Position numbers and translations under genes: made by a program
Shown here: positions 2,354 to 15,331 of the stretch, piece by piece
Numbering within the stretch: the first letter of the stretch is position 1
How the letters are laid out: every line of letters begins with the position of its first letter
The notes under the pieces: generated by a model
What the model was told of the DNA's origin: nothing
Databases searched by the model: none
Seen by the model: only the letters and a program-made list of their open reading frames with translations
Source of the DNA: a virus
Lineage: Duplodnaviria; Heunggongvirae; Uroviricota; Caudoviricetes
Length of the DNA: 15,331 bases
IMG/VR virus record: IMGVR_UViG_2617270976_000002
Location: 1-15,331 of that record
Reading direction: 5' to 3' (one strand)

Positions 2354-2621
2354 CCACCTCTGTAATTCTTATCTCCAGCCGTCCACCAGATACTGGCTGG
2401 CCACGTACAATATTGATTTCATCAAACTGCTCATCGTCCATTAACAACCCCGCGTGCGTCAGCGCATCCAGTGGTGCTTTCAGAATATTGTCCAGGTCAC
2501 GACGACGCTTATCCGGTGGCTCTGCAATAATTTTTATTGCCAGCCGTCCGGACAGGCTTAATTTCAGTCGCTGCTGGCGAACAATAAGCGCCACTGAGGG
2601 CTTTCCTAAACTCATATCCAC
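2340..2621 (-). CDS. rusA: RusA-family Holliday-junction resolvase, N-terminally short
   Basis: …AIKIIAEPPDKRRRDLDNILKAPLDALTHAGLLMDDEQFDEINIV…GGRLEIRITE matches the conserved core of E. coli RusA (…[40 protein letters not shown]…GGRLELTITE, recalled). The frame is closed by TGA just upstream of the GTG start, so roughly 30 residues of the usual N-terminus are not encoded. Confidence 0.7.
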   Translation of the reverse strand: MDMSLGKPSVALIVRQQRLKLSLSGRLAIKIIAEPPDKRRRDLDNILKAPLDALTHAGLLMDDEQFDEINIVRGQPVSGGRLEIRITEVGVHE

Positions 2622-2781
2622 GTCTGCGGTAGTTATGAATCAGCCATTCGGCCTGTTCTTCAGTACAGGGATCGTGCTGATACCAGTCATATTTGAATGC
2701 GTGAGAACGCCACCCGTGCCTGCTGGCAAAGGCAGAATCAGAATTGCGAAATTTGAAATTATGCGCCATTGTCATCTCCAA
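2509..2781 (-). CDS. hypothetical protein (90 aa) overlapping the rusA-like start in another frame
   Basis: TTG-start ORF whose 3' 110 nt overlap the rusA-like ORF out of frame. Its N-terminal half (MAHNFKFRNSDSAFASRHGWRSHAFKYDWYQHDPCTEEQAEWLIH) does not resemble a RusA N-terminus. Could be a real small gene or a frameshift remnant. Confidence 0.3.
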   Translation of the reverse strand: MEMTMAHNFKFRNSDSAFASRHGWRSHAFKYDWYQHDPCTEEQAEWLIHNYRRRGYEFRKALSGAYCSPAATEIKPVRTAGNKNYCRATG

Positions 2782-2828
2782 TGGCGCTGCAGGTTGCCAG
2801 TTGTTCAGGCTGGCTCACGTATTATAAC

Positions 2829-3002
2829 TTATTCCCGAACTACCTTGAAACCGAGTCTTTCCAAGTATTCAATGAATGCCTCAACAGATAACACTACATG
2901 ATCATCAGGAATTAACGCTGTGTAGGTAATACCCCCATTCTCAACGCGCACAGCATAGAGGCCATCTTCACTAAAAATTTCACGTAATTCTTCGATTTTC
3001 AT
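2829..3002 (-). CDS. small hypothetical protein (57 aa)
   Basis: Hand-translated, below the ORF-track length cutoff: MKIEELREIFSEDGLYAVRVENGGITYTALIPDDHVVLSVEAFIEYLERLGFKVVRE. A GGAAGGA RBS sits about 8 nt upstream of the ATG at 3000-3002. Confidence 0.45.
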   Translation of the reverse strand: MKIEELREIFSEDGLYAVRVENGGITYTALIPDDHVVLSVEAFIEYLERLGFKVVRE

Positions 3003-3124
3003 CTTCAGAATCCTTCCAGATAAATAGCTCTTCCCCTTCGGGGTCCATCCCTCTTCTCCCTGCGCGCTACTTAAGTATTTTTGATTCTATTCCGGCACCA
3101 TCTAAAACTTCAAACGCGTTGAAA

Positions 3125-3155
3125 ATAAAAACAAAAACCCGCCGAAGCGGGTTAA
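3125..3155 (-). terminator. intrinsic terminator downstream of hok
   Basis: Minus strand CCCGC-TTCG-GCGGG followed by TTTTTGTTTTTATTTT: 5-bp GC stem with a UUCG tetraloop and a U-tract. Confidence 0.6.
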
Positions 3156-3221
3156 GTGCGGGTGCGTTGAGGATGCCTGACACATCAGAGGTGGCGAGGG
3201 ATTTCTCCCCCGCCCGGTCTC

Positions 3222-3377
3222 TTACTCCTCAGGTTCGTAAGCTGTGAAGACAGCGACCTCCGTCTGGCCGGTTCGGATTCGTACCTCGCAGAGGTCTTTC
3301 CTCGTTACCAGTGCCGTCACTATGACGGTTAAACAGATGACGATCAGGGCGATTAGCATCGCCTTTTGCTGCTTCAT
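3222..3377 (-). CDS. hok: Hok/Gef-family membrane toxin (HokD/RelF-like, 51 aa)
   Basis: MKQQKAMLIALIVICLTVIVTALVTRKDLCEVRIRTGQTEVAVFTAYEPEE has the Hok signature: single transmembrane helix, then conserved RK.LCE..IR…EVA.F.AYE. Matches my recollection of E. coli HokD/RelF. An AAGGAG SD sits 9 nt upstream of this ATG. Confidence 0.85.
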   Translation of the reverse strand: MKQQKAMLIALIVICLTVIVTALVTRKDLCEVRIRTGQTEVAVFTAYEPEE

Positions 3378-3434
3378 AGCCTGCTTCTCCTTGCCTTTCG
3401 GCACGTAAGAGGCTAACCTACGTGTGTAGAGCAT
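3222..3434 (-). CDS. mok: Mok-like in-frame upstream extension of hok (70 aa)
   Basis: Upstream ATG at 3432-3434 opens MLYTRRLASYVPKGKEKQA in frame with hok. This resembles the N-terminus of MokC (MLNTCRVPLTDRKVKEKRA…, recalled), the reading frame that modulates Hok translation. Confidence 0.5.
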   Translation of the reverse strand: MLYTRRLASYVPKGKEKQAMKQQKAMLIALIVICLTVIVTALVTRKDLCEVRIRTGQTEVAVFTAYEPEE

Positions 3435-3668
3435 AGATATGGCCTCAGATTAATGTTAAGCGTCTTGCCGGACGCGTAATGTTAACTGGGGCTTTTCTCT
3501 ATCTGCCTTTTGGTGTTCATGCCTGAGACAGATAGCCTCAAGCACCCGCTGCAATTCTACTTAACTCTCCTTTTCCCGCAAACCGTTTTTATCCCCAGCG
3601 GCAAATCGAATACACCACCAGCGCCACCGCCATCGCAATTCCTACCGTTGTTAATGCTTCAGGCCAGG

Positions 3669-3974
3669 TCATCGTAAAATATCCTCCACGCTTATCAGTC
3701 CGTTCCGCTCCAGATAACTCATCGCCTTATCCGGTAATTTGCAGTCTGGCTTCGCTTTCCTCAGTTGCCAGGTTAACTGCTTTACCAGCATGGTTAACTC
3801 ATCGACCAGACGCTGATATCCCACTGGTTTGTATTCATGCAATTTACCGGCTGGCTCTGCTGCCAGCGATGCCAGCGCAATCCGTGCCAGTTCCATTTGT
3901 TCACCACGGGTAAGCCCGTTTTCAAGCGGGTTTTTAATGAACAATTCAATACGTTCTTTGGTAATAGTGGTCAT
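3669..3974 (-). CDS. hypothetical protein (101 aa)
   Basis: Six-frame ORF with ATG start, same orientation as neighbours and tightly packed; no recognisable motif. Confidence 0.6.
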   Translation of the reverse strand: MTTITKERIELFIKNPLENGLTRGEQMELARIALASLAAEPAGKLHEYKPVGYQRLVDELTMLVKQLTWQLRKAKPDCKLPDKAMSYLERNGLISVEDILR

Positions 3975-3984
3975 GTGTTACTCC

Positions 3985-4248
3985 TTAACCCGCAGTGCTT
4001 TCAACTGATGAGGGGAACAAAATCTTTTCATCAAACCCTGCATTCATATCATGGACAGCAACACACCAATCCATTGACGAACGATTATCAAGAGCCTCCA
4101 TGATTTCATCCATGCGGCGCAGGTCATACAGGTAAATGCTTTTATCGCCAATGGTGTAAAAACCAATTTTTTTCGGTGATGGACAGCGATCAAGAACGTC
4201 CTGTAATTCGCTCAACCATGCTTGTTCTTTTTTTGTCAAAGTTGCCAT
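3985..4248 (-). CDS. hypothetical protein (87 aa)
   Basis: ORF with ATG start preceded by AAGGAGAG. Its 5' junction sequence is duplicated at the next gene upstream. Confidence 0.6.
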   Translation of the reverse strand: MATLTKKEQAWLSELQDVLDRCPSPKKIGFYTIGDKSIYLYDLRRMDEIMEALDNRSSMDWCVAVHDMNAGFDEKILFPSSVESTAG

Positions 4249-4249
4249 A

Positions 4250-4741
4250 TCACTCTCCTTTGATGCGAATGCCAGTGGTACTCATTCTCCTGATTTCCCA
4301 GAGCACACGAGGAACACCACCGTTTCCGACCGGATCGCGTTTACTCCGCAGGGCGACGCTTGATTCCGCCCAGCTTTTTCTTGGAGGAAGCTCTTTCACA
4401 CGAACAAAACCAGCTGCGCGGAGAGATGCTCCTGATTCATCTGCCTGGGTGTACGTAATACAACGTTGATAACCCATAGCCTTTGCTGCCCGCCAGACAG
4501 CACCATAAAGCGCGCTGTTAGCGTTGCGTTCTCCTGTGGTACATGTGCGATTTACTTCAAGCGTTAATCCATCGTCCAAATGTCGTGCAACAGGTCTACC
4601 GGCTGTCGCCACACCTATCAATTCTCCGGCATCATTTCTCAGACCAATGCTGAATTTATGCCCCACCGGGGGTTTATTGTGTCGGTGATGTCTGGATATA
4701 AACGCCTTCGCAACACGAAGAGTAACCGGTGAAATTTGCAT
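4250..4741 (-). CDS. hypothetical protein (about 163 aa), possibly acetyltransferase-like
   Basis: ORF track gives 4250..4780. The ATG at 4739-4741 (MQISPVTLRVAKAF…) has a strong AAGGAGAG RBS and sits 2 nt after the upstream stop, so I prefer it. C-terminal half (…NANSALYGAVWRAAKAMGYQRCITYTQADESGASLRAAGF…) vaguely resembles a GNAT-type motif. Confidence 0.55.
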   Translation of the reverse strand: MQISPVTLRVAKAFISRHHRHNKPPVGHKFSIGLRNDAGELIGVATAGRPVARHLDDGLTLEVNRTCTTGERNANSALYGAVWRAAKAMGYQRCITYTQADESGASLRAAGFVRVKELPPRKSWAESSVALRSKRDPVGNGGVPRVLWEIRRMSTTGIRIKGE

Positions 4742-4743
4742 TC

Positions 4744-5103
4744 TCACTCTCCTTTGATGCCAATGTTTACAGACTGGCAAGCCTCTTTGAGCACCCAGTC
4801 AACAGCGTCTTTCCATGCTCCGGTTTCGACTGGCGGATTCTCACGCTTTACCTGTTCATAAAAGCGCACAGCTTTAACCAGTCCTTCTGATGTCACCGAA
4901 GCTGGCGGGGCCGTGAATAACGCCTGAATTTCATAGTTTGGTCTGTCGTTACAATCCTCTTTTGTCGGGACATATTTCCAGTCACCAACCCACTGCTTCC
5001 CCTGAAAGTCTGTAACGCCTTTTTTCACGTAGCGATATCGCCATGCCACTGGTTTTGCCTGCCCTGCCTTTTCATGCCCTTCCTGATAATTAATCTCGCT
5101 CAT
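4744..5103 (-). CDS. hypothetical protein (119 aa)
   Basis: ORF with ATG start. Ends …NIGIKGE*, the same C-terminal pentapeptide and stop context as the 4250..4741 gene. Confidence 0.6.
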   Translation of the reverse strand: MSEINYQEGHEKAGQAKPVAWRYRYVKKGVTDFQGKQWVGDWKYVPTKEDCNDRPNYEIQALFTAPPASVTSEGLVKAVRFYEQVKRENPPVETGAWKDAVDWVLKEACQSVNIGIKGE

Positions 5104-5104
5104 T

Positions 5105-5276
5105 CATCGCCCCACTCATCACAATATGCTTCGACCGGTGTTTTCCCTGCTTCATAATCATCACGCCATGCTTCAGCATCAGCGGCACTTCCACCGCGTA
5201 ACTCTGCATAATCCATTAACAGTTCATGCCATTCTTCAAAACTGGCGTTATATTTAGTTGAACCAAAATCAGCCAT
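5105..5276 (-). CDS. small acidic protein (57 aa)
   Basis: Hand-translated, below the ORF-track cutoff: MADFGSTKYNASFEEWHELLMDYAELRGGSAADAEAWRDDYEAGKTPVEAYCDEWGDE. Start overlaps the upstream gene's stop by 8 nt; stop abuts the next start. Confidence 0.45.
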
Positions 5277-5451
5277 TTTGTTCTTCCTCTTCGTCTTTTA
5301 TTTCGTGGTATGAGTAATTGCAGTAGTTAAAGAAAATATCTTTAGCTTCATCCTGTATTTCATCTGGTGTTGCATCATCATCCACTTCGAATTCATCCTC
5401 GAAATCTCCACCGGCTATTCCCGTTTCAATAATTATTTTGAATTTTCGCAT
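5269..5451 (-). CDS. small highly acidic protein (60 aa)
   Basis: MRKFKIIIETGIAGGDFEDEFEVDDDATPDEIQDEAKDIFFNYCNYSYHEIKDEEEEQNG: about one third of residues are D or E. Confidence 0.5.
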   Translation of the reverse strand: MRKFKIIIETGIAGGDFEDEFEVDDDATPDEIQDEAKDIFFNYCNYSYHEIKDEEEEQNG

Positions 5452-5579
5452 TTCACTACCGCCCTTTCGGACGGCCTCCTGATGTTCTGAGGGTGCAGGA
5501 ATCCCTCCGGTTAAGGATTTAATAAAAATCGTTTCTGATTTAAATCTTCAGTATTTAGTTGTTAGTCGGTTTATAGCCT

Positions 5580-5891
5580 TTATGCTTCGGCCTTATTTCT
5601 CAGCCATACACAAACCGGGCCATCTTCGGTGTCATGTATTGAACCAATAAACCATCCATTGCCCTCTGGTCGTTCCGGTTCCCATGCAGAAATATCAGCA
5701 TCACACGCATCAAGGTCAGCACATCCTTCATCTCTGAAGCAGAGGACGTATTGAAGATTATTTTCCTCCATCCAGGCGTTAAACTCTTCCGTTGAAATAT
5801 ATTCCCGACCGTCACAGAATTTTTCATATTCAGGATGCGTCCAGTAGCCATATTCATCACGTACTACTGGTATTTCTTTAATTTCATTCAT
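5580..5891 (-). CDS. hypothetical protein (103 aa)
   Basis: ATG-start ORF whose start overlaps the upstream stop by 8 nt. Acidic and Trp-rich. The alternative frame 5600..5860 looks like a shadow. Confidence 0.6.
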   Translation of the reverse strand: MNEIKEIPVVRDEYGYWTHPEYEKFCDGREYISTEEFNAWMEENNLQYVLCFRDEGCADLDACDADISAWEPERPEGNGWFIGSIHDTEDGPVCVWLRNKAEA

Positions 5892-6138
5892 TTCTGTTCT
5901 CCCACGTTTTCAGACTTTCACCACAGAACGGACAAAATGAAACCCGAACTGGTAATTTAGAAAATTCACCGGAACGCAACATCACAAAATCAGGACCGCG
6001 AGTTAAACTCTCATTCCAGATTTTGTATATCAGCAGACCTTTTCGCATCGTGTATTCAGCATCACGCTCAAGGGACTTTGCCAGTGCTGCACATGGTTCT
6101 ATCTTGTTGCCATTAACCTGGCATTTTGATTCACTCAC
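5884..6138 (-). CDS. small zinc-ribbon-like protein (84 aa)
   Basis: Cys at both ends (…SKCQVNGNKIEPCAAL… and …SFCPFCGES…), i.e. CxxC-type pairs. Start overlaps the upstream stop (ATGA). Confidence 0.6.
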   Translation of the reverse strand: MSESKCQVNGNKIEPCAALAKSLERDAEYTMRKGLLIYKIWNESLTRGPDFVMLRSGEFSKLPVRVSFCPFCGESLKTWENRNE

Positions 6139-6563
6139 CGCACCACCTCCTCAAAATTCCCCTGATAAAACGCCAGTACACGCTGCATAGCTTCACTCTT
6201 CCGGCACTCGCGACAGATTATGTTTAGGCGCCTGTCGTAGCGGCGTATTTCGCCGTCTGGTAATAGCCAGATAAGGTCCGGATCAACCACAGATGGTTTC
6301 TTCAGCTTTGCCCTTGAGAGTTTTTTGCGGGCGTTTTGCCAGTCCTTGCGCGCCTGCTCAGACGGGAATACTCCGTAACCGGAATTGTAAACATCACCAC
6401 TGGCGGCCAGCTCCATGCATAAACGACCGACAGACGCATGACTGACACCAATTTCATCCGATAACTGCCGAATCGTGCCTCGTCCGTTAAGGCGTACGAA
6501 TTCCACGATCAGCCCCTTAATTTTTTCCCGCTCTTCTGGTGTAAATGCTCTTGTCATAAGCAC
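6135..6563 (-). CDS. HTH/winged-helix DNA-binding protein (142 aa)
   Basis: …GRGTIRQLSDEIGVSHASVGRLCMELAASGDV… has a helix-turn-helix pattern; basic C-terminal region. Confidence 0.6.
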   Translation of the reverse strand: MLMTRAFTPEEREKIKGLIVEFVRLNGRGTIRQLSDEIGVSHASVGRLCMELAASGDVYNSGYGVFPSEQARKDWQNARKKLSRAKLKKPSVVDPDLIWLLPDGEIRRYDRRLNIICRECRKSEAMQRVLAFYQGNFEEVVR

Positions 6564-6572
6564 CTCCGGAGA

Positions 6573-7316
6573 TCACTTTGTTGTCGGTGAATGAACCGGA
6601 ATATCAGCAATCGAACTGAAAATATCCCGGTGTTTATTCAGCTCCCGCAGCGCGGCGCAGACTCGCTCCCACTTCTGAACCTGACCTTTTGCCCGGCGCA
6701 GCTCACGGTTAGCCACATGCAGCGATGGTAAAATCAGACCATCCGGATGTTTTCTGGTGAACGACGGCTGTGACTGCACTGTGACCGCCACACTTTCCGT
6801 TTTTATTTCTTCCTGTGTTTCTGCTTCCCGAACTGGTAACGCAACACCTGCTGGCTGAGGAAAGGCTTTACCATCGGTTTCCGCTACGGATGCAGCTTCC
6901 GGCTCTGCCGGTAAATCAGCGCCCGGTATGCAGTAACGAAATTTACCGCCCTGATTCACGCGAATCAGACGCCCTTTGCTGATTGCCATGGCCAGCGATG
7001 AATTCGCCCGGCGGGAGGTAATCCCGAACATCAGTGCCAGCTCATCCGCCGTTTGTGGGCCATGTTGTTCAATCGCCTCAGTCAGCATTTGCGCTGTCAC
7101 TTTCGGTACCGGTGACACCGGTTCACTTTCACCAGCCTGAATCAGCCACCACATCGAACCCTTGTTATCCGCTTCACCGCGGCGCTTCAGTTTCCACAGT
7201 TCGTTGACCGCATCTTTACGGCTGATTCCAAGGCGGGCCGCCACTACCTGTGAAGAGGCTCTTTTCAGTGCTTTCAGTGCGTCAAATACGGTTTCCATTA
7301 AAATTTCCTCCGACAA
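6573..7316 (-). CDS. two-domain winged-helix protein (247 aa)
   Basis: Two HTH-like segments (…[26 protein letters not shown]… and …[30 protein letters not shown]…) separated by a Pro/Ala/Glu-rich linker. Lies immediately downstream of the P-like gene. Confidence 0.6.
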
Positions 7317-7331
7317 AATCGTTTCTCAGAT

Positions 7332-7997
7332 TCAAATAAAACCAGCTGCCTTCCGGCGTTCGTATTCCTGTTTCAGCCGTTCAATTGGCGTTGGCCCTTG
7401 CGGGTGTTTCGCCCCTTCCAGTTGTCGTCGCACTGGCGGAACACTCATCCCGTTACCAACATGCTTTGCCCATTTCGTCAGTTGCCGTTCTGCAAGTCGT
7501 TTTAACTCACCCTGCGTCATCTGGCGCTCAATCCCTCTGGTACGCATTTCGAGGCAGATGTGGTACAGCACAGGCTGTGGCCACGGGTATTTATCACTCC
7601 CGTCGTATCGCCAGGATTCATTGCGCCAGCGCCGGTACTCTTCCATCACTGCATCCACCGTAAGACCAAATGGATTTGCCCCACTCTCCGAAATCAGTGC
7701 AACAAACTCAGCCAGGTCCGGGGGCCACGTTTCACCCGCCCGGCAGCGGTCCATGCACTGACGGCAGACCAGCCGGATTTGCTGTTCAGTCATCGCGCCA
7801 ATCTGGGCAATCCAGAGCTTCGAAGGTGCGGCCCCGTTCTTCTGGGTCCAGCGGTTCGAATAAACCTCCCCCATGAGTTCCCACAGCTTCCAGACCGTTT
7901 CCGTCGCTGATAAATCCGTTTTCACGTTCCCACTGCTCACGTGCTGCCCGAATTTCCTGAACTGCCCGTGATGCGGTGCCACCTGGTGCTGCTGCAT
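7332..7997 (-). CDS. lambda-P-like replication protein (DnaB helicase loader); start uncertain
   Basis: …ETWPPDLAEFVALISE… and …YPWPQPVLYHICLEMRTRGIERQMTQGELKRLAERQLTKW… parallel lambda P (…PFLPSPGQFVAWCRE… and …YPWKSNAHYWLVTNLYQNMRANALTDAELRRKAADELVHM…, recalled). The longest ORF overlaps the O-like gene by about 210 nt; the true start is probably internal. Confidence 0.7.
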   Translation of the reverse strand: MQQHQVAPHHGQFRKFGQHVSSGNVKTDLSATETVWKLWELMGEVYSNRWTQKNGAAPSKLWIAQIGAMTEQQIRLVCRQCMDRCRAGETWPPDLAEFVALISESGANPFGLTVDAVMEEYRRWRNESWRYDGSDKYPWPQPVLYHICLEMRTRGIERQMTQGELKRLAERQLTKWAKHVGNGMSVPPVRRQLEGAKHPQGPTPIERLKQEYERRKAAGFI

Positions 7998-8832
7998 GGT
8001 TTACCCCCTTGCTGACTGGCTTAACCTGCGCCCTGACGTGATTTACGTGACGGGCGAATTTCTGCTCCCACTGAACCTGCGTGAAAACTTTCCCCTCCGC
8101 TGCCCAGTAGTCCCGGAAAGCGGCAAGTTCAGCAGGTGTAAATTCCGGCTCCGGCAAAGCCATCCCCCACAACGCAGCCCGTCGTCGAAAATCCGGCGAC
8201 GGATGCCAGTCATCGACCATCGGAAATTTCCCGATGGGTTCGCTCAGTCCATCCAGGGATGCAGGTTCTGCTGCCTGCAACGGCGTACCACTCGACTCAC
8301 TGGTCGGAGCACTCTCGCGCACGTGCGCGTTATGTGTGGGGTTTAATTCTTTATCTGTATCTTTATCTGTCGTGACTCGTCGTGACATGTCGTGACATAT
8401 GCGTGACTCGTCGTGACACCCCTCATTCTGTTTTCGTAATTTATCCCTCTCGCGCTGCGCTCTCTTGCGCTCTGCCGGGGATTTCGCGGTTTGTGAAACG
8501 TTGCCATTGTCCTCTTTCAGTACCTGGCGTTTTTCCCATCCGGTGATTAAATCTCCATCAAGTACCCGCCCCTGCATTGCCTGTAAAATTGAATCAATTA
8601 CTTCTTCCGTCACATCAAGCGCACTTGCTAAATCTTCCGTCGTGACATCAATGTGACCACGTAGTGACACGCCGTGACATGTCGTGACATTTCGTGACGC
8701 GTTCACCAGAAGGTGGATATACACCGCCATCACTGTTGCAATTGGCTGTCCTGACACCCTGGAAATTGTTCGCCACTTAGGATCATTTGGCATGTCATGC
8801 CATAACCTGAGCCAGGCATTAGCCATACTCAC
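7786..8832 (-). CDS. O-like replication initiator with DnaT-like C-terminal domain
   Basis: 348 aa. The C-terminal segment …IGKFPMVDDWHPSPDFRRRAALWGMALPEPEFTPAELAAFRDYWAAEGKVFTQVQWEQKFARH… closely parallels E. coli DnaT (…[62 protein letters not shown]…, recalled). Both iteron arrays lie inside this gene, and it sits directly upstream of the P-like gene. Confidence 0.8.
   Translation of the reverse strand: MSMANAWLRLWHDMPNDPKWRTISRVSGQPIATVMAVYIHLLVNASRNVTTCHGVSLRGHIDVTTEDLASALDVTEEVIDSILQAMQGRVLDGDLITGWEKRQVLKEDNGNVSQTAKSPAERKRAQRERDKLRKQNEGCHDESRICHDMSRRVTTDKDTDKELNPTHNAHVRESAPTSESSGTPLQAAEPASLDGLSEPIGKFPMVDDWHPSPDFRRRAALWGMALPEPEFTPAELAAFRDYWAAEGKVFTQVQWEQKFARHVNHVRAQVKPVSKGVNHAAAPGGTASRAVQEIRAAREQWERENGFISDGNGLEAVGTHGGGLFEPLDPEERGRTFEALDCPDWRDD
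8369..8417. repeat. iteron array A: five direct (G)TCGTGAC repeats at 10-11 bp phasing, next to an AT-rich tract
   Basis: CGTGAC at about 8371, 8381, 8391, 8402 and 8412. Preceded at 8341-8370 by an AT-rich tract containing a tandem CTTTATCTGT repeat. Located in the linker-coding middle of the O-like gene. Confidence 0.6.
8641..8698. repeat. iteron array B: six direct (C)GTGAC repeats at about 10 bp phasing
   Basis: GTGAC at about 8641, 8653, 8664, 8673, 8683 and 8693, plus one inverted copy (GTCAC) near 8612. Located in the N-terminal-domain coding part of the O-like gene. Confidence 0.55.
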
Positions 8833-8897
8833 CTCTTCTGATACCGAATCTTTTTACTCACGAATTACCGGAAGCGATCCGGTATGAATATTGTCAG

Positions 8898-9323
8898 TCA
8901 ATGCACAACCACAATATTTCCCGCCGGGCCACCACGATTCATCTGGTTGAAACCAGCGATCGCCACTGCGACAAAATCATCAGCGTCTCTCACCAGTCGT
9001 TCCCGCGTCTCCACCAGCTCCCGAAAATAAGCTGAACTGTGGCTGCGCATTCGGGCCACCAGCAGAGGCGGCATTGCTTTTTCGATCGCTGGTAACAACG
9101 CCTGAATTTTTTTAACCGCATCAGGAGTGTCTTTCTCCACCCAGCGGAAAATTTTCTGGGTATTGCGAGCCAGGGCTTCCGGATGGCTGTCGTCATATAA
9201 TTCCGGGAACGTCATACCAAGCTCAAAATAAGCCCGGGTTATTTCAGCTGCCGGAACTTTTTCACCGTCCGGATGCGCCCAGGCATTCATCGCCATGCGG
9301 ATGTGCTCATGCCTGATTTTCAT
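8898..9323 (-). CDS. YdaT-like protein (occupies the cII position)
   Basis: 141 aa. MKIRHEHI… start, internal …KKIQALLPAIEKAMPPLL… and C-terminal …VVVH resemble Rac prophage YdaT as I recall it. Start overlaps the Cro-like gene's end by 17 nt. Confidence 0.6.
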   Translation of the reverse strand: MKIRHEHIRMAMNAWAHPDGEKVPAAEITRAYFELGMTFPELYDDSHPEALARNTQKIFRWVEKDTPDAVKKIQALLPAIEKAMPPLLVARMRSHSSAYFRELVETRERLVRDADDFVAVAIAGFNQMNRGGPAGNIVVVH

Positions 9324-9582
9324 GAATCAACTCCGATGCATTTGGTGTGTTAGCCTTGAATCCAACAGGTAAGCCGTCGGTTGGATTCGGGTAAATATCA
9401 GGCCGGAGTTCATGAGGTGTAACCTCGAAATTCGTTACTTCAGCAACACGTAATGCTTTTTCAGGGCTGAATCTTTCATAGCCCCCCAGCACTCGACTTA
9501 CATGCACCTGAGATAAACCCGTTAGCTTCCCAAACTGTAGCTGGGTGATATGTTTCTCTTTTAAATAGTCTCTTAAGTTCAT
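9307..9582 (-). CDS. Cro-like HTH protein (YdaS-type)
   Basis: ORF track start is a TTG at 9588; I prefer the ATG at 9580-9582 (MNLRDYLKEKHITQLQFGKLTGLSQVHVSRV…), which has a GAAGG RBS. HTH near the N-terminus; …ELRPDIYPNP… resembles the ELRPDI motif of YdaS (recalled). Divergent from the repressor gene. Confidence 0.7.
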   Translation of the reverse strand: MNLRDYLKEKHITQLQFGKLTGLSQVHVSRVLGGYERFSPEKALRVAEVTNFEVTPHELRPDIYPNPTDGLPVGFKANTPNASELIHENQA

Positions 9583-9689
9583 AGCCAACCTTCTACGTTA
9601 TGCCCCGAGCAAATATTAGCCCCACTAATTTTAAAGATCAATAGCCAGGCTATCTTTGATAATATCGGTAAAACAAATAAACTCTATGT
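9583..9689. promoter_or_regulatory. immunity-region control region: divergent promoters with TAGCC-type operator half-sites
   Basis: Leftward promoter on the minus strand: TTGATC (9636-9641), 17 nt, TAATAT (9613-9618). Rightward extended -10 TGaTAATAT at about 9657-9665. Perfect palindrome ATAGCCAGGCTAT at 9641-9653, with related sites TTAGCCCCACTAA (9616-9628) and ATAGCCAACC (9581-9590). Confidence 0.5.
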
Positions 9690-10151
9690 ATGAAAAAAAC
9701 ACGCGAAGTGATTGCAACTCCAGCAGCGAGCAAGAATTTAAAAGCCGCATGGAATGCAAGAAAAAAAGAGCTGAAGCTGACTCAAGAGCTGGCGGCTGAG
9801 TTGTTGGGATTCGAATCTCAAGGCACCGTTAGCCAGTATCTGAACGGCAAGATACCGGTAAATACCGACGCTGCGCTAAAATTTGCGGCTCTGTTAAAGG
9901 TAAAACCAGAGGACATTCGAGAAGACCTTAAAGACTTAATGAATTATGTAAGATCATCAGATACTTATGATGATAGCTTTTCAGGCAAAGGATGGAGGCT
10001 GGTCAATGAAGAACAGGCAGAGTTACTTAACCTCTTCGAGATTCTACCTGCGTCAGAAAAAGCCAAACTCCTTAACCAGCTACGTGGACTAAACAAGCTC
10101 TACGAGGAAGCCTTCGAGAACATGCTGGCACTAAAGAAACGTAACCAGTAG
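9690..10151 (+). CDS. DicA-like prophage repressor (HTH_XRE, no S24 peptidase domain)
   Basis: 153 aa. HTH …LTQELAAELLGFESQGTVSQYLNG…; C-terminal …ELLNLFEILPASEKAKLLNQLRGLNKLYEEAFENMLALKKR parallels the DicA C-terminus (…ELLELFNALPESEQDTQLAEMRARVKNFNKLFEELLKARQR, recalled). No Ala-Gly/Ser-Lys autocleavage module is visible. Confidence 0.75.
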   Translation: MKKTREVIATPAASKNLKAAWNARKKELKLTQELAAELLGFESQGTVSQYLNGKIPVNTDAALKFAALLKVKPEDIREDLKDLMNYVRSSDTYDDSFSGKGWRLVNEEQAELLNLFEILPASEKAKLLNQLRGLNKLYEEAFENMLALKKRNQ

Positions 10152-10176
10152 CCACCGCTCACTACCCCATCCACAA

Positions 10177-10207
10177 CAAAAAAACCGACGTCTTAGTCGG
10201 TTTTTTT
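10177..10207 (+). terminator. intrinsic terminator after the repressor gene
   Basis: AAAAAAA-CCGAC-GTCTTA-GTCGG-TTTTTTT: symmetric A-tract, stem and U-tract, about 25 nt after the stop. Confidence 0.65.
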
Positions 10208-10304
10208 GTGCCATAACTTCTGCAAATCAGCTGTATAACTAATATTTTTCCCTTGAAAAAACATTTACATAGTTACCAAATCAAAAATATCATACGCCAT
10301 ACTG

Positions 10305-10333
10305 TTGACTTAAAATATCCGTGTTACTAATAT
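10305..10333 (+). promoter_or_regulatory. strong sigma70-type promoter for the ydfA-dicF-dicB operon
   Basis: TTGACT (10305-10310), 17-nt spacer, TAATAT (10328-10333). The first gene starts about 70 nt downstream. Confidence 0.5.
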
Positions 10334-10404
10334 TTCTATCAAGAACAACACGGCGCTGTAGGTTTTAGTTCCGCCACCCGGCGTTAAGGGGAAATGAGGT
10401 CAAC

Positions 10405-10557
10405 ATGGATATGCTCAATCTTGGCAACAACGAATCTCTGGTATGTGGTGTGTTCCCCAACCAGGACGGCACATTCACCGCGATGACGTATACCAAAAGT
10501 AAAACGTTTAAAACCGCAGCTGGCGCGCATCGCTGGTTAGCAAGAAACACTGACTGA
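10405..10557 (+). CDS. ydfA: YdfA-like small protein (50 aa)
   Basis: Hand-translated, below the ORF-track cutoff: MDMLNLGNNESLVCGVFPNQDGTFTAMTYTKSKTFKTAAGAHRWLARNTD, with GAGGT RBS. Size and position (first gene after the DicA-like repressor) match Qin ydfA. Replaces the antisense ORF 10365..10550. Confidence 0.55.
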   Translation: MDMLNLGNNESLVCGVFPNQDGTFTAMTYTKSKTFKTAAGAHRWLARNTD

Positions 10558-10568
10558 TGAGGTTGACG

Positions 10569-10907
10569 ATGGAATTTAAAGATTTACCTCCTTCAATCCA
10601 GGAGATTGCAGCACACACGCTTCGTCATCGTCTGAACGAACTTGAATTGGAATCGGTAACAAAAAAAGACACTGATAATATGGCTCGTAATGTGCGCGAT
10701 GCGTTTACTGGGCTGTTTTCAGATACAGCTTTAAATATCCATGGCACAGAGGATACAGCAAAACAATTTGCAGAAAAAGAAGTGGAAGATCCCAGTTCAA
10801 AGAGCCAGAAACAGCCAAACAACCATGAAATTAACGAACTGCTTCTGGCAACAGGCTTCATAAATATTAACGAATATGAACGCCGTAAAAAAATGTTATC
10901 TGATTAA
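10569..10907 (+). CDS. hypothetical protein (112 aa)
   Basis: ORF track gives a TTG start at 10557; the ATG at 10569 (MEFKDLPPSIQEIAAHTL…) is preferred. Acidic and Lys-rich; occupies the ydfB/ydfC position. Confidence 0.55.
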   Translation: MEFKDLPPSIQEIAAHTLRHRLNELELESVTKKDTDNMARNVRDAFTGLFSDTALNIHGTEDTAKQFAEKEVEDPSSKSQKQPNNHEINELLLATGFININEYERRKKMLSD

Positions 10908-11090
10908 TCCATCAAGATATCTTTTTAGCATCAGCGTTTCTACGTTATTAAAACCATCAGATTTTAACATAGCTTCGATTCGCTGATTTAAATTGCCAAC
11001 TAACTGTTGATACTGAGTAGATGGAAGCATGTGTACCAGCTCCTTGAGAACACAATAACATGCACCAAGTTTTAACTCCTGCTCTGACAT
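10896..11090 (-). CDS. small convergent ORF (64 aa) on the strand opposite the operon
   Basis: MSEQELKLGACYCVLKELVHMLPSTQYQQLVGNLNQRIEAMLKSDGFNNVETLMLKRYLDGLIR with GGAGGA 4 nt upstream. The plus strand is closed in all frames here. Tail-to-tail overlap of 12 nt with the 112-aa gene. Confidence 0.4.
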   Translation of the reverse strand: MSEQELKLGACYCVLKELVHMLPSTQYQQLVGNLNQRIEAMLKSDGFNNVETLMLKRYLDGLIR

Positions 11091-11429
11091 TTTATCCTCC
11101 ATTGAGGTTACTGGTTGAGAATGGAGACCTCTCGTGACAGCGTGTGGTCGTGCGCCGGACACGGATAAGAATCCGGCACTGACAGTTTACTGAAAGGATA
11201 TTTCCCTGAAAAGTCAGACCATAACGCGACAGCGCACGGCGAGGTAGCTGGTTCATAGATAGCCTGTCGTTAAATTTTCGTCGACCGTGCGCTTCCGGTT
11301 GTGGCAATCCGCGAAATGGCGCGGCGGTAAGTATGGCGGGGTTATTCCTTCCCCCGTTGAGGACACCGGGTTGTCAGGTTGACCATACGCTTAAGTGACA
11401 ACCCCGCTGCAACGCCCTCTGTTATCAAT

Positions 11430-11487
11430 TTTCTGGTGACTTTTGGCGGTATCAGTTTTACTCCGTGACTGCTCTGCCGCCCTTTTT
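11430..11487 (+). ncRNA. dicF: DicF small RNA (ftsZ-targeting sRNA of Qin-type prophages)
   Basis: TTTCTGGTGACTTTTGGCGGTATCAGTTTTACTCCGTGACTGCTCTGCCGCCC followed by TTTTT matches my recollection of the 53-nt E. coli DicF almost base for base. The 3' GGCGG…CCGCC stem plus U-tract forms its terminator. Confidence 0.8.
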
Positions 11488-11768
11488 AAAGTGAATTTTG
11501 TGATGCGGTGAATGCGGCTGAGCGCACGCGGAACAGTTAAAACCAAAAACAGTGTTATGGGTGGATTCTCTGTATCCGGCGTTAATTGTTAACTGGTTAA
11601 CGTCACCTGGAGGCACCAGGCACCGCATCAACAAAGTTCACTTCGGTGATGAAAGGTAAGAGAAAATGTTGAATGTAGCTATTGAAAACCAGAACGGGTG
11701 GAATTATAGTGCACCTGCACCTCATAAAACGGGTGCCGGGCGTGGAAACCCGAAATCATTCACGGCGC

Positions 11769-11795
11769 ATAACCGCGCTCAGGCGGTTTTTTTAT
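11769..11795 (+). terminator. intrinsic terminator or attenuator in the rha leader
   Basis: AACCGC-GCTCAG-GCGGTT followed by TTTTTTT, nested in a longer inverted repeat (GCGCATAA…TTATGCG). About 170 nt upstream of the rha start. Confidence 0.45.
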
Positions 11796-11962
11796 GCGTT
11801 AAGCACAGCCACATTCGCATTATGGTGGGGCGTGCAGGGCAGCCGCAAGGCTGGCCGGGTTCCGTGATGACCGGTATTTCCACCCCTGTACGTCTCACCA
11901 CCCTTATGGTCGTGGAAAACCTCGGTGGTGAGTTAATCAAATTCATCGCGGAGGCTGCCATC

Positions 11963-12520
11963 ATGGCTACTATCCTTACCCTTTCTCACCCTGACGTAAC
12001 CATCGAAAATGGTCGCGCTGTCACTACGTCTGTTGCGATCGCCGAGTTCTTTGGCAAACGCCACGAACGAGTGTTGGATAAAATTCGCAATCTGGACTGT
12101 TCAGCAAAATTCACTGAGCACAATTTTGTGTCGAGCGAATACACCGACTCAACCGGGCGCAAACTCCCAATGTACCAAATCACCAAAAACGGCTTCGTTT
12201 TCCTGGTGATGGGGTTCACAGGTAAAAAAGCCGCAACTTTCAAAGAAGCCTACATCGCTGAGTTCGATCGCATGGAGGAAGAACTGCGCCAGAATAACGC
12301 CCCGTCTCCCGACAAAATGATTCACGGGGACGGACGCACCCTGGTTATCCGTCTCGACGAACACGGCAATATCAAATTCACTGAAACCGTTCCTGACGGC
12401 GCAATGGTCTGCACCCTGGATACCTTCCGGTTTTATCTGGAGAAACAAGGATGGACTCTTGTAAACCGGAGCGCAATTAAAAATATGACTGTGGAGCAAT
12501 TGCTAAAAATTCATTGTTGA
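11963..12520 (+). CDS. rha: Rha-family phage regulatory protein
   Basis: ORF track gives 11666..12520. The ATG at 11963 (MATILTLSHPDVTIENGRAVTTSVAIAEFFGKRHERVLDKIRNL…) has a GGAGG RBS 8 nt upstream and puts the pRha-type domain at the N-terminus, as in this family. The upstream 99 codons are Gly/Arg/Pro/His-rich and span a terminator. Confidence 0.7.
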   Translation: MATILTLSHPDVTIENGRAVTTSVAIAEFFGKRHERVLDKIRNLDCSAKFTEHNFVSSEYTDSTGRKLPMYQITKNGFVFLVMGFTGKKAATFKEAYIAEFDRMEEELRQNNAPSPDKMIHGDGRTLVIRLDEHGNIKFTETVPDGAMVCTLDTFRFYLEKQGWTLVNRSAIKNMTVEQLLKIHC

Positions 12521-12530
12521 GGACGCGATA

Positions 12531-12719
12531 ATGGAAACGTCACTACCAAACGTTAATACGTCTGACGGGTGCTTTAATATTGGTGTTCTGCTCAGTAACA
12601 GGGATTTCACCGAGGATGCAATCAATATGAGAAAATATGAACCCTACCTGCTGAATGACAATTCCATACTCTCCAGAATTGCCCTTCTTAAACTCGGTAT
12701 TTTCGGAGAGTGGCGATGA
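12531..12719 (+). CDS. dicB: DicB-like cell-division inhibitor
   Basis: METSLPNVNTSDGCFNIGVLLSNRDFTEDAINMRK… parallels E. coli DicB (MKTLLPNVNTSEGCFEIGVTISNPVFTEDAINKRK…, recalled). 62 aa, GAGGA RBS, start 11 nt after the rha stop. Confidence 0.85.
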   Translation: METSLPNVNTSDGCFNIGVLLSNRDFTEDAINMRKYEPYLLNDNSILSRIALLKLGIFGEWR

Positions 12720-12919
12720 ACACATTATTCGTACTCATTCTGACTGTACATCTCAATACTGGTGAGTCGCTTGATGCAATCACCGGCATGTACAACTCAA
12801 TGAAAGAATGCATGGCTGCCGCAGCGGAACAGAAAATTCCCGGCAACTGTTATCCGGTCGATAAAGTTATTCACATGGACAATAACGAAATCCCGGCAGG
12901 ATTAAAAACAGCGCCGTAA
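12716..12919 (+). CDS. ydfD: YdfD-like small membrane protein
   Basis: MNTLFVLILTVHLNTGESLD…MKECMAAAAEQKIPGNCYPVDKVIHMDNNEIPAGL resembles Qin YdfD (recalled). Hydrophobic N-terminus; start overlaps the dicB stop. ORF track start is a GTG at 12710. Confidence 0.7.
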   Translation: MNTLFVLILTVHLNTGESLDAITGMYNSMKECMAAAAEQKIPGNCYPVDKVIHMDNNEIPAGLKTAP

Positions 12920-12998
12920 TTAATATCCAGTTTCATTTTTATATGCCAGCAATGGCAGGGATTTGTTCACCCTTAAATCTGTAATGAGGTAAAACAAA

Positions 12999-15331
12999 AT
13001 GAGTAAAGTCTTTATTTGCGCTGCTATTCCTGATGAACAGGCCATAAAAGAAGATAGCGCTGTTGCGGTGGCCACTGCCATTGAAGCTGGTGATGAGCGT
13101 CGCGCACGCGCAAAATTTCATTGGCAATTTCTGGAGCAATTCCCTGCAGCTCAGGACTGCGCTTATAAATTTATTGTCTGTGAGGATAAACCCGGCATAC
13201 CCCGCCCTGCCCTCGATTCCTGGGATGCTGAATATATGCAGGAAAACCGCTGGGATGAGGAGTCTGCTTCCTTTGTCCCGGTTGAGACTGAATCAGATCC
13301 GATGAACGTCACTTTTGACAAGCTGGTCCCTGAAGTACAGAACGCTGTCATGGTTAAGTTCGACACATGTGAAAACATCACCGTTGATATGGTTATTAGC
13401 GCACAGGAATTGTTGCAGGAAGACATGGCAACATTCGACGGACATATCGTTGAAGCGTTGATGAAAATGCCAGAAGTTAACGCCATGTATCCGGAGCTTA
13501 AGTTGCACGCCATTGGGTGGGTTAAGCATAAATGTATTCCTGGTGCTAAATGGCCCGAAATTCAGGCAGAGATGCGCATCTGGAAAAAACGTCGCGAAGG
13601 TGAACGCAAGGAAACCGGAAAATACACGTCTGTTGTTGATCTCGCCCGCGCCAGAGCCAATCAACAGTACACTGAAAATTCAACAGGAAAAATCAGCCCG
13701 GTCATTGCTGCCATTCATCGCGAATACAAGCAGACATGGAAAACACTGGATGACGAACTGGCCTACGCTCTCTGGCCTAGTGATGTGGATGCCGGAAACA
13801 TTGACGGCAGCATCCATCGCTGGGCAAAAAAAGAAGTTATCGACAACGACCGCGAAGACTGGAAGCGTATCTCGGCATCAATGCGCAAACAGCCTGATGC
13901 CCTTCGCTACGACCGCCAAACTATTTTTGGCCTTGTCCGTGAGCGTCCGATCGACATTCACAAAGATCCCGTAGCACTGAACAAATATATCTGCGAATAC
14001 CTGACGACAAAGGGCGTGTTTGAGAATGAAGAAACAGACCTGGGCACTGTTGATGTTCTCCAGTCATCAGAAACACAAACTGATGCAGTGGAAACTGAGG
14101 TATCTGATATCCCAAAAAATGAAACCGCGCCGGAAGCTGAACCATCTGTAGAGCGTGAGGGGCCGTTCTATTTCCTCTTCGCAGATAAGGACGGAGAAAA
14201 ATACGGTCGCGCAAACAAACTCTCTGGTCTGGATAAGGCACTGGCTGCTGGCGCCACTGAAATCACAAAAGAAGAATATTTTGCCCGAAAAAATGGCACA
14301 TACACGGGCTTACCGCAAAATGTAGATACCGCTGAAGATTCAGAACAACCAGAGCCGATAAAAGTTACCGCTGACGAAGTAAACAAAATTATGCAGGCAG
14401 CCAATATCAGCCAGCCTGACGCCGATAAGTTGCTTGCTGCATCACGTGGTGAATTTGTTGAAGGGATTAGTGACCCGAATGATCCGAAATGGGTTAAGGG
14501 GCTCCAGACCCGCGATTCTGTGAACCAGAACCAGCATGAATCGGAACGGAACTACCAAAAAGCGGAACAAAACAGTCCAAATGCGTTACAAAACGAGCCA
14601 GAAACGAAACAGCCTGAACCAGTAGCGCAACAGGAAGTGGAAAAAGTCTGCACCGCCTGCGGTCAGACCGGCGGCGGCAACTGCCCTGATTGTGGCGCGG
14701 TGATGGGCGACGCAACATACCAAGAAACATTCGATGAAGAGTATCAGGTTGAAGTTCAGGAAGATGATCCGGAGGAAATGGAAGGCGCTGAACATCCACA
14801 CAAGGAGAACACTGGCGGCAATCAGCATCACAATAGCGATAATGAAACTGGCGAGACGGCAGATCACCCAATTAAGGTGAACGGTCATCACGAAATCACA
14901 TCCACCAGCAGGACGTGTGACCATCTAATGATCGACCTTGAAACCATGGGAAAAAATCCTGATGCCCCGATCATCTCAATAGGTGCAATATTTTTCGATC
15001 CGCAAACCGGAGATATGGGACCGGAATTTAGTAAGACTATCGATCTGGAAACTGCTGGCGGAGTCATTGATCGGGACACCATTAAATGGTGGCTTAAGCA
15101 ATCACGCGAAGCGCAATCTGCCATTATGACCGATGAAATCCCGTTAGATGATGCACTGTTACAATTGCGGGAATTTATCGACGAAAACTCCGGTGAATTT
15201 TTTGTTCAGGTCTGGGGAAATGGAGCCAACTTCGACAACACGATTTTGCGCCGTTCATACGAACGGCAGGGGATCCCCTGCCCGTGGCGTTACTACAACG
15301 ATCGCGATGTACGCACAATCGTTGAGCTGGG
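12999..15331 (+). CDS. RecE/YdfE-like large early protein (exodeoxyribonuclease VIII-like), 3' end outside the window
   Basis: Hand-translated frame with ATG at 12999-13001 and GAGG RBS, open for at least 777 codons to the window edge. All ORF-track entries in 13063-15124 are short shadows in other frames. N-terminus MSKVFICAAIPDE… matches recalled Qin YdfE; …DADKLLAASRGEFVEGISDPNDPKWVKGLQTRD… matches a recalled RecE segment. The C-terminal part (…HLMIDLETMGKNPDAPIISIGAIFFD…) looks like a DEDD-type 3'-5' exonuclease. Confidence 0.8.
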   Translation, partial: MSKVFICAAIPDEQAIKEDSAVAVATAIEAGDERRARAKFHWQFLEQFPAAQDCAYKFIVCEDKPGIPRPALDSWDAEYMQENRWDEESASFVPVETESDPMNVTFDKLVPEVQNAVMVKFDTCENITVDMVISAQELLQEDMATFDGHIVEALMKMPEVNAMYPELKLHAIGWVKHKCIPGAKWPEIQAEMRIWKKRREGERKETGKYTSVVDLARARANQQYTENSTGKISPVIAAIHREYKQTWKTLDDELAYALWPSDVDAGNIDGSIHRWAKKEVIDNDREDWKRISASMRKQPDALRYDRQTIFGLVRERPIDIHKDPVALNKYICEYLTTKGVFENEETDLGTVDVLQSSETQTDAVETEVSDIPKNETAPEAEPSVEREGPFYFLFADKDGEKYGRANKLSGLDKALAAGATEITKEEYFARKNGTYTGLPQNVDTAEDSEQPEPIKVTADEVNKIMQAANISQPDADKLLAASRGEFVEGISDPNDPKWVKGLQTRDSVNQNQHESERNYQKAEQNSPNALQNEPETKQPEPVAQQEVEKVCTACGQTGGGNCPDCGAVMGDATYQETFDEEYQVEVQEDDPEEMEGAEHPHKENTGGNQHHNSDNETGETADHPIKVNGHHEITSTSRTCDHLMIDLETMGKNPDAPIISIGAIFFDPQTGDMGPEFSKTIDLETAGGVIDRDTIKWWLKQSREAQSAIMTDEIPLDDALLQLREFIDENSGEFFVQVWGNGANFDNTILRRSYERQGIPCPWRYYNDRDVRTIVEL

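Follow-up and report, generated by a model that had tools for sequence, protein, structure and literature searches.

How the small RNA (sRNA) DicF is released from the polycistronic transcript of its prophage, and what part a short stem just upstream of it plays in that release, are the questions raised by positions 11358–11490 of a viral DNA of 15,331 nucleotides (nt) from the Caudoviricetes (IMG/VR record IMGVR_UViG_2617270976_000002, positions 1 to 15,331), hereafter called the window. An earlier note, made from the sequence alone, had described a near-exact DicF there and had proposed that a 9-bp inverted repeat about 25 nt upstream could be the double-stranded site at which DicF is cut out. 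DicF and its processing enzymes are already known, and its release in the window is explained by these enzymes acting at other positions than the stem. The stem belongs to a conserved RNA domain that precedes DicF, and it is this domain that forms the main subject here. DicF, the domain and its helices, the long helix and the linker described below, and dicB, are all encoded on the plus strand of the window.

Identity of the DicF copy

The Rfam model of DicF (RF00039) matched positions 11431–11482 over its whole length (model positions 1–52 of 52), with a score of 75.8 bits, a gathering score of 48 and an E-value of 1.5e-15. Alignment with dicF of Escherichia coli K-12 MG1655 (b1574) placed the gene at 11430–11482, with 52 of its 53 nt identical and G12U as the sole difference. 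This substitution lies in the 5′ single-stranded part of the RNA. Nucleotides 13–53 were the same as in K-12, including the terminator hairpin (11445–11481, −15.9 kcal/mol in both) and its T-run (11483–11487). Mutagenesis has revealed that the 3′ region of DicF pairs with the ribosome-binding site of ftsZ, and the 5′ end serves other targets, for example xylR in K-12 (PMC5069750). The duplex predicted with the K-12 ftsZ leader was −37.1 kcal/mol for the window allele vs. −38.5 kcal/mol for K-12 DicF. Because only nucleotide 12 differs, outside both the ftsZ-pairing region and the terminator, neither is damaged by substitution, and the earlier description of a near-exact DicF with its terminator holds. 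Positions 11430–11482 thus carry a functional-looking allele of this known sRNA, which blocks cell division.

The region was matched at 10,914 places in 4571 of 5426 complete E. coli genomes, and the U12 allele was rare, position 12 being G in 89, A in 8 and T in 4 of the 101 canonical copies in the fetched loci. The window copy resembles that of the Qin prophage in its terminator hairpin, its ftsZ-pairing 3′ region, the type of its operon (a dicA-like repressor, ydfA and dicB) and its flanks, over about 280 nt upstream and about 170 nt downstream. It differs in G12U, in the genes found between ydfA and dicF, and in an isrK/C4 Rha/Ant cassette inserted before dicB.

Processing sites of DicF

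In K-12, the 53-nt DicF owes its 5′ end to RNase E, and a 190-nt species owes its own to RNase III; both RNAs stop at the intrinsic terminator, and an alternative 72-nt form arises from read-through RNA by an RNase III cut at its 3′ end (PMC10448788 and PMC9438474, which both cite Faubladier 1990). The K-12 terminator works, yielding DicF and a transcript ending there, and in stationary phase the 190-nt species builds up as a stable RNA (PMC10448788). Over 11254–11515 the window has the sequence of K-12, except for an extra C at 11351–11355, a T/C difference at 11308 and G12U. Transferred from the K-12 experiments through this identity, the maturation of DicF here is shown to consist of termination, RNase III cleavage near 11296 and RNase E cleavage at 11429/11430. 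In the proposed sequence of events, the intrinsic terminator would set the 3′ end, RNase III would cut in or beside a 21-bp helix to give the 190-nt intermediate, and RNase E would then cut an AU-rich linker to leave the 53-nt DicF. The published account of this maturation (Ragunathan 2023, PMC10448788) has the same terminator 3′ end, RNase III-dependent 190-nt species and RNase E-dependent 53-nt species; it maps the ends and gives no fold for the 137 nt that separate the cuts, although an older drawing in Faubladier 1990 is possible.

The RNase E cut was placed at 11429/11430 (AAU/UUU), as the K-12 dicF annotation begins at the base aligned to 11430. It falls at the end of the AU-rich linker GCCCTCTGTTATCAAT (11414–11429). 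RNase E prefers AU-rich single strands, which fits this position. The RNase III-dependent end of the 190-nt species was counted from the terminator by the published size, giving an estimate of about 11296 (11292–11300) rather than an exact nucleotide; in the accessible text of two papers that map RNase III sites, none is given for dicF. The estimated end is about 70–72 nt upstream of the 9-bp stem and inside the 3′ arm of the 21-bp helix, in which 11220–11242 pairs with 11281–11303. The helix was predicted by RNAalifold from an alignment of 22 relatives (alignment A5) and recurred in the minimum free energy (MFE) fold of 11150–11490; its pairs are nearly invariant and show no compensatory changes, so that the support comes from energy and conservation. 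It is likely to be the real RNase III substrate. The CGTGCGC of its 3′ arm (11287–11293) could also pair with a second GCGCACG (11520–11526), which lies downstream of DicF.

The MFE fold of 11358–11490 places the RNase E cut within a hairpin loop, that of the small hairpin 11421–11427/11434–11440. This predicted hairpin, GTTATCA/TGGTGAC, would mask the 5′ seed of DicF in the precursor and present the RNase E cut in its loop. A short-DicF variant (loci L023 and L127) retains a hairpin at this place (ATCAC/GTGAT).

The inverted repeat itself was exactly as the earlier note had described it. Its arms, GGGTTGTCA (11368–11376) and TGACAACCC (11396–11404), are 9 nt long, 100% complementary and separated by 19 nt, and the stem ends 25 nt before the 5′ end of DicF. 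Such a repeat is by itself only mildly unusual. Dinucleotide shuffles of 11358–11490 contained a perfect inverted repeat of at least 9 bp with a 3–60 nt loop in 62 of 5000 cases (1.2%), and the whole window has 15 starts of such repeats. These frequencies would suit a chance repeat, or a feature of the DNA such as a protein-binding palindrome with no role in RNA. That explanation is nevertheless the least probable of those considered, as compensatory double substitutions were found at five of the nine stem pairs, the G·U intermediates are permitted only in plus-strand RNA, and the repeat sits inside a larger covarying fold. The stem was counted as real because it is conserved with compensatory change in relatives.

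The proposal that did not survive is that RNase III-type cleavage of this stem frees DicF from the polycistronic RNA. The stem does exist, is conserved and lies near DicF, and RNase III does act in DicF maturation. However, the RNase III-dependent end yields a 190-nt RNA and so points to about 11296 rather than to 11368–11404, the 5′ end of the 53-nt form depends on RNase E and lies 25 nt downstream of the stem, and DicF species of about 80–115 nt, which a cut in the stem would be expected to leave, are not reported (PMC10448788, PMC9438474). The stem also fails as an RNase III site on structural grounds. Unlike the rightly placed 21-bp helix, it is not an extended helix of about two turns, and its lower pairs carry A·C mismatches in many copies, making it a poor substrate. 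With nine base pairs and a loop of 19 nt, it is also shorter than RNase III substrates usually are. Cleavage in the stem is accordingly very improbable. The stem is shown here to be a helix, H3, inside a conserved domain that is retained on the 190-nt intermediate, and is neither of the two cut sites.

A conserved pseudoknotted domain upstream of DicF

The domain spans about 116 nt (11298–11413) and forms the 5′ body of the 190-nt intermediate. Covariance model R1 scored 150.4 bits at 11298–11413 and 84–152 bits in 44 relatives, and the fold comprises a closing helix, three hairpins and a pseudoknot. The 5′ edge at 11298 differs by a few nucleotides at most from the end that the size of the 190-nt species implies, and the 3′ edge is 16 nt before the RNase E cut. 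Because these edges fit both cuts, the 190-nt species corresponds to the domain plus DicF.

The closing helix (GTTGTGGC, 11298–11305, with GCTGCAAC, 11406–11413) had compensatory changes at six of eight pairs; it alternates between wobble and Watson–Crick pairs among relatives and takes the form GTTGTGGT/ACCACAAC in the cdtI/Erwinia clade. Hairpin H1 (CCGCG, 11309–11313, with CGCGG, 11320–11324, around an AAATGG loop) was 97.7% paired and is almost invariant, which leaves it uninformative for covariation. Hairpin H2 (CGGGG, 11337–11341, with CCCCG, 11352–11356) was the most variable. Three of its five pairs were compensatory, and relatives have CTGGGG/CTCCAG, CAGGTG/CACCTG, CCCGGG/CCCGGG, CAGGG/CCCTG or CTGGG/CCCAG in its place. 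Hairpin H3, the 9-bp stem, had compensatory changes at five of nine pairs, with 96% of alignment cells paired, and occurs in relatives as GGATTGTCA/TGACAATCC, as GAGTTGCCA/TGGCAACTC and, in Izhakiella, as GGGTAACCA/TGGTTACCC. Since one of its two lower-middle pairs is an A·C mismatch in 111 of 259 copies, its constant core is the upper six pairs.

The pseudoknot joins the loop of H3 to the linker between H1 and H2 and was first indicated by RNAalifold. Its 5′ strand (11326–11336; GGT at 11326–11328 and GTATGG at 11331–11336) pairs with CCATACGCT in the H3 loop (11383–11391; CCATAC at 11383–11388 and GCT at 11389–11391). The pairing was 99% complete and covaried: a U–A to C–G switch was found inside the P1-like lineage (GTATGG/CCATAC vs. 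GCATGG/CCATGC), and the F1055 type had a U·G intermediate. The pseudoknot was left out of the covariance model, so that the alignment was not fitted to it. Two of the pattern scans used to gather copies fixed parts of the pseudoknot strands, and the strands stayed conserved in the scans that did not.

In alignment A3 (MAFFT, 65 distinct copies), 96.2% of cells paired, vs. 33–53% when the partners were slid, and eight pairs changed on both sides, a number reached in none of 500 shuffles. In alignment A4 (45 sequences aligned to R1), 96.1% of cells paired and 15 pairs were compensatory, vs. 5.1 ± 1.3 in shuffles (0 of 500 reaching 15) and at most 5 in the slid controls. The G·U pairs of the domain fit only the RNA of the plus strand. 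Covariation thus supports a compact, pseudoknotted four-helix domain, and the structural and identity part of our reading, namely DicF together with the fold of the domain, is in our judgment very probably correct.

The last 6 nt of the 3′ arm of the 21-bp helix (11298–11303) also form the 5′ strand of the closing helix. At the top of the long helix, CATAAC (11220–11225) pairs with GTTGTG on this strand. The top of the long helix and the closing helix are mutually exclusive, because both use 11298–11303.

Two other readings of these sequences were rejected. An alternative helix proposed by a repeat finder (11336–11343/11400–11407) was paired in 82.3% of cells, equal to the shuffle mean, with no excess of covariation, and H2 and H3 were preferred. 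A coding role was considered for the frame from ATG 11333 to TGA 11396 (21 codons); a CCCC/CCCCC polymorphism at 11351–11355 (between K-12 and the window) shifts the frame, and P1, Erwinia and Trabulsiella have no ATG for the mini-ORF (open reading frame) ATGGCGCGGCGGTAA, so that the frame is not coding.

Searches of Rfam 15 returned no family for the domain, either for the window copy (E ≤ 10) or for those of P1, cdtI, Erwinia, Izhakiella and F1055 (E ≤ 1). ARAGORN found no tRNA- or tmRNA-like structure in 11000–12000, and no Rfam tRNA-clan model matched the domain.

Distribution and modularity of the domain

Copies were gathered by four pattern scans, two anchored inside the element and two only outside it, and then by a hidden Markov model, giving 246 copies. 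A search of phage genomes revealed that 11298–11421 is conserved on its own. Phage cdtI, Ayreon and Stx2c phages, none of which has a canonical DicF, share it at 89.5% identity; in P1 and P7, where the C1-controlled P1ban promoter stands just upstream of it, the identity is 77–82%. Hosts of the domain were Escherichia, Shigella, Citrobacter, Trabulsiella, Erwinia tracheiphila, Izhakiella, Salmonella phage F1055 and more than 500 P1-like plasmids. It is thus shared by Qin-like and cdtI-like lambdoid prophages of at least six genera and by the P1-type phage-plasmids. Three further copies came from metagenome-assembled genome bins labelled Bacillota, Veillonella parvula and Collinsella (L137, L138 and L143), whose sequences are the same as those of the domain in E. 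coli or P1; these are most likely binning contamination.

The P1 copy coincides with a feature annotated as a "dicF-like region" in the ban leader (misc_feature 68791–68892, NC_005856). It shares the domain, followed by an intrinsic terminator, and has compensatory changes relative to the window in H2, H3 and the pseudoknot. It differs in having no DicF seed, another terminator and a closing helix that is not evident because of mismatches. The P1 domain begins about 20 nt after the −10 of P1ban, in a unit of about 180 nt, whereas the domain in the window lies about 1 kb into its operon.

A terminator-like hairpin followed by a T-run was found after the domain in 217 of 230 loci by script, and in the remainder by eye, except in one rearranged locus. 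The terminator came within about 12–125 nt of the domain, and the spacers, of 12 to about 110 nt, were unrelated between types of cargo. The cargo was canonical DicF, one of at least six other seed-and-hairpin versions, a 12-nt spacer and terminator (cdtI type), long hairpins (an Erwinia-type clade) or an unrelated terminator (P1). Nearly all non-P1 terminators retained the base GGCGG/CCGCC. The domain was more conserved than its cargo, with a column identity of 0.96–0.985 vs. about 0.91.

Among 130 homologous cassettes sharing the downstream flank, 85 had the domain and 45 lacked its interior. The 45 domain-less loci kept only a 4–5-bp hairpin formed from the closing-helix strands (GTTGTR-AATAA-CRAC), and in all 130 cassettes the structured element, whether the domain or the short hairpin, was 5′ of the cargo. 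Locus L269 had a clean deletion of the interior, with the closing helix surviving as a small hairpin. We read the whole as a precursor from which an sRNA is processed and whose leader, structured and modular, is attached to sRNA-plus-terminator cassettes that can replace one another.

Interchangeable sRNA-like cassettes were seen after the domain or the short hairpin in many loci (L007, L023, L028, L034, L091, L110, L117, L121, L132, L255 and others). They differ in their seeds and upper terminator stems, set on the constant GGCGG/CCGCC base, and have conserved flanks on both sides. The pattern suggests that target specificity has diversified among the relatives of DicF.

In one clade, comprising L131, Trabulsiella (L144), Erwinia (L146), Izhakiella (L147) and Salmonella phage F1055 (L148, 2640–2800), a long hairpin serves as the terminator that follows the domain. 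The loop of this hairpin contains GGAGG and the ATG or GTG of a short ORF that runs through the 3′ arm and the T-run, an arrangement that could provide translation-coupled control of termination. A boxA-like motif, GTGCTCT(C/T)(T/A) followed by GTTGTGG, stands directly 5′ of the domain in L004, L140, L146, L147 and L148, and returns in the same loci about 150 nt downstream of the terminator as GGTGCTCTTCTCTGTT(T/G)TGTGG.

Possible functions of the domain

The function that we favor is one in cis, at the RNase E site. The domain would be a stably folded neighbor by which RNase E finds the adjacent single-stranded linker or is activated to cleave it, and would also be a protective 5′ body of the 190-nt intermediate. 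It is known that tRNA units or stem-loops next to a cut site dock in an RNase E groove and activate cleavage of the single strand beside them (PMC9841416). The DicF cut resembles such substrates, namely tRNA precursors (PMC9841416) and MicL (10.1101/341578), in that an AU-rich, single-stranded cut site lies between stable structures, here with 16 nt separating it from the domain upstream and 15 nt from the terminator hairpin downstream; it differs in that the domain is far more elaborate than needed. Folding of the domain would probably be coupled to RNase III processing, because the closing helix competes for a shared strand with the top of the RNase III helix.

The whole of this explanation, that is a DicF allele, the known cuts, a domain containing H3 and a cis role at the RNase E site, seems to us somewhat more probable than not. 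Its functional part, taken separately (a folded neighbor of the RNase E site, a protective 5′ body and coupling to RNase III), is put forward tentatively, as a role that may well turn out otherwise.

Several points weigh against it. The covariation comes from a modest number of independent lineages, many copies being near-identical, and alignment A4 was fitted to the nested helices. The RNase III position derives from the 190-nt size and is not exact. In MicL, the position of RNase E cleavage is set by stem-loops 3′ of the cut and not by 5′ sequences (10.1101/341578), so that the DicF terminator hairpin may suffice. The domain is absent from 35% of related cassettes, and thus is not required for an sRNA of this family; in the cdtI type, 12 nt between domain and terminator leave little room for a seed released by RNase E. 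A simple hairpin would be enough to guide RNase E, and a pseudoknotted four-helix fold whose tertiary segments hardly vary, maintained from Erwinia to P1, points to something more specific. We infer the functional role, and the elaborate, strongly conserved fold suggests an additional function beyond that of an RNase E handle.

A rival function would be control of transcription in cis. The domain could act on the next terminator as a riboswitch-like aptamer or as a put/nut-like antiterminator RNA, allowing read-through past the DicF terminator into dicB and the early operon and setting the ratio of terminated DicF to read-through mRNA. Nearly every copy of the domain is followed by an intrinsic terminator, within about 12–125 nt, and genes of the operon lie beyond it. 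In phage Tritos these are dicB, ydfD, exonuclease VIII, xis and int, in P1 they are tRNAs and ban, and in cdtI all early-left genes. An N-like antiterminator was not found in the operon of the window. A four-way junction with a pseudoknot, near-invariant unpaired nucleotides and a terminator next to it is aptamer-like, and in one clade a boxA-like GTGCTCTYT is immediately 5′ of the domain. The GGCGGUA of the domain also repeats the 5′ arm of the terminator, and the MFE fold of 341 nt pairs 11322–11345 with the 3′ arm of the terminator.

Other observations speak against terminator control. The 45 cassettes without the domain keep the terminator and the downstream genes, most of them without an N gene, which argues that read-through does not need the domain, and the K-12 dicF terminator demonstrably works (PMC10448788). 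The spacing and sequence between domain and terminator vary freely, and a conserved alternative pairing is absent. In the L121/L028 lineage the terminator base has become GGTGG/CCACC and the domain still has GGCGG, which breaks the putative anti-terminator pairing; this pairing, suggested by the MFE fold, was rejected on that account. Nor was any likeness to HK022 putL/putR found in sequence or structure.

The HK022 put elements deserved a closer comparison. They are early-operon RNAs of about 70 nt with two stem-loops and a triplex that override terminators (PMC9378689). Like them, the domain is an early-operon RNA upstream of terminators without a dedicated protein, and the words GCGCGGCGG and ACCATGCG (P1 version) are shared. 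Homology was rejected, as the shared words are in reversed order, the architecture differs and profile searches were empty. In the HK022 PL/PR immunity region, nhmmer found no match and the covariance model none at E ≤ 10; an unfiltered scan around putL gave at best 4.8 bits, and that at another place. An element between an early promoter and the first terminators is what P1 has and, plausibly, the cdtI type; the window has it about 1 kb past the promoter region, after ydfA and another ORF. The domain-less alleles, which have the same downstream genes, are a further difference from put.

The idea that the domain substitutes for N was likewise rejected. Two domain-less Stx-type phages encode N, but among the 32 domain-less loci with at least 2.5 kb of upstream sequence only 3 had that N type, in a tblastn search that covered one N type and could miss other N families. 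Lack of the domain was thus not associated with N. One domain-less locus had, by PHROGs, a DicA-like repressor and Kil and no N.

Four-way-junction aptamers with a loop-to-junction pseudoknot that stand before a terminator, such as SAM-I, are alike in architecture, in size and in their conserved unpaired and tertiary nucleotides. The domain differs from riboswitches of this type in having no Rfam riboswitch match, no conserved exclusive expression platform and no clue to a ligand in the gene context. Overall, we consider control of the next terminator unlikely, though a serious alternative. The same low probability attaches to the broader proposal that the domain is a new class of phage regulatory RNA which, by sensing a ligand or binding RNA polymerase or a host factor, would decide between stopping and reading on into dicB, kil, recombination genes or ban. 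If this were true, DicF would be a by-product of an undescribed attenuator or antiterminator common to lambdoid phages and P1.

Alternatively, the domain and its terminator could be a free-standing non-coding RNA of about 180–190 nt acting in trans, by binding a host protein or RNA early after induction, with the DicF seed a lineage-specific addition in its 3′ tail. The unit in P1, which runs from the C1-controlled P1ban promoter to the terminator without a DicF-like seed, would suit such an RNA, as would the cdtI type, with its 12 nt only between domain and terminator. So would the accumulation and stability of the 190-nt species in stationary phase (PMC10448788), the better conservation of the domain than of its cargo, and its spread across upwards of 500 P1-like plasmids as well as most E. 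coli genomes. However, there is no known or predictable partner, the most conserved segments that look single-stranded are taken up by the pseudoknot, and domain-less alleles are common. A trans-acting RNA is unlikely as well, and slightly more so than terminator control.

Genomic context of dicF

The operon around dicF is a dicB-type early operon of a lambdoid prophage, with a DicA-like repressor (9690–10151), ydfA (10405–10557) and dicB (12531–12719), followed by an exonuclease, xis and int. The product of dicB, the downstream gene of the dicF operon, has 62 aa; it is annotated as DicB in the identical sequence of strain CFSAN061761 and matched phrog_1251 over its full length. The other genes that the earlier note had listed for this prophage were found too: dicB, sok/hok and a YdaT-family gene are all in the window, and a match to the sok antitoxin RNA (3372–3547, minus strand, 117.1 bits) confirmed the hok/sok locus. 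A promoter scan found none in 11300–11430, and no promoter inside the operon is reported for K-12 (PMC10448788).

Between ydfA and the dicF leader (10557–10907), the window has a 116-aa ORF (phrog_2151, unknown function). In its place, K-12 and the otherwise identical strain CFSAN061761 have ydfB and ydfC, the latter strain with an extra ORF as well (L001, 3260–4060). This pattern indicates a mosaic exchange upstream of a constant leader.

Downstream, dicF and dicB are separated in the window by a 0.9-kb Rha/Ant-like cassette, whereas K-12 has nothing there. The cassette (11666–12520) is a 284-aa Rha/Ant-like ORF matching phrog_995 over its full length. The first third of the ORF overlaps Rfam matches to isrK (11717–11793, 67.7 bits) and to the C4 antisense RNA (11818–11905, 81.9 bits), and a weak c4-a1b1 match was found at 11704–11756. 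The cassette looks like the immI-type C4/ant control module of P1, and on this resemblance the ORF may begin further downstream than annotated. Phage cdtI has this pair of isrK and C4 as well (L004, 40–228, minus strand).

A conserved stretch right after the DicF terminator (11494–11635) gave a sub-threshold Rfam match to STnc100 (39 bits vs. 47), and the P1 ban leader gave a similarly weak one (L003, 3842–3961). The Prokaryotic Genome Annotation Pipeline annotates 11552–11635 as a truncated dicB.

Implications

A conserved leader domain preceding DicF-like RNAs is apparently a new result, undescribed in Rfam and in the searchable literature, in which Faubladier 1990 and King 2011 were not covered. 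DicF is a textbook prophage sRNA, and the 137 nt attached to it in the 190-nt intermediate are treated as spacer in the accessible papers. The "dicF-like" annotation of P1 is corrected as well, since what P1 shares is the leader domain and not DicF. The domain is now a testable object, with defined helices, a pseudoknot and natural domain-less alleles. It raises the question of whether its fold governs maturation through RNase III and through RNase E, stability or read-through, i.e., the amount of DicF relative to DicB, and it would be of high importance should termination turn out to be under the control of the domain, or a host factor to be bound by it.

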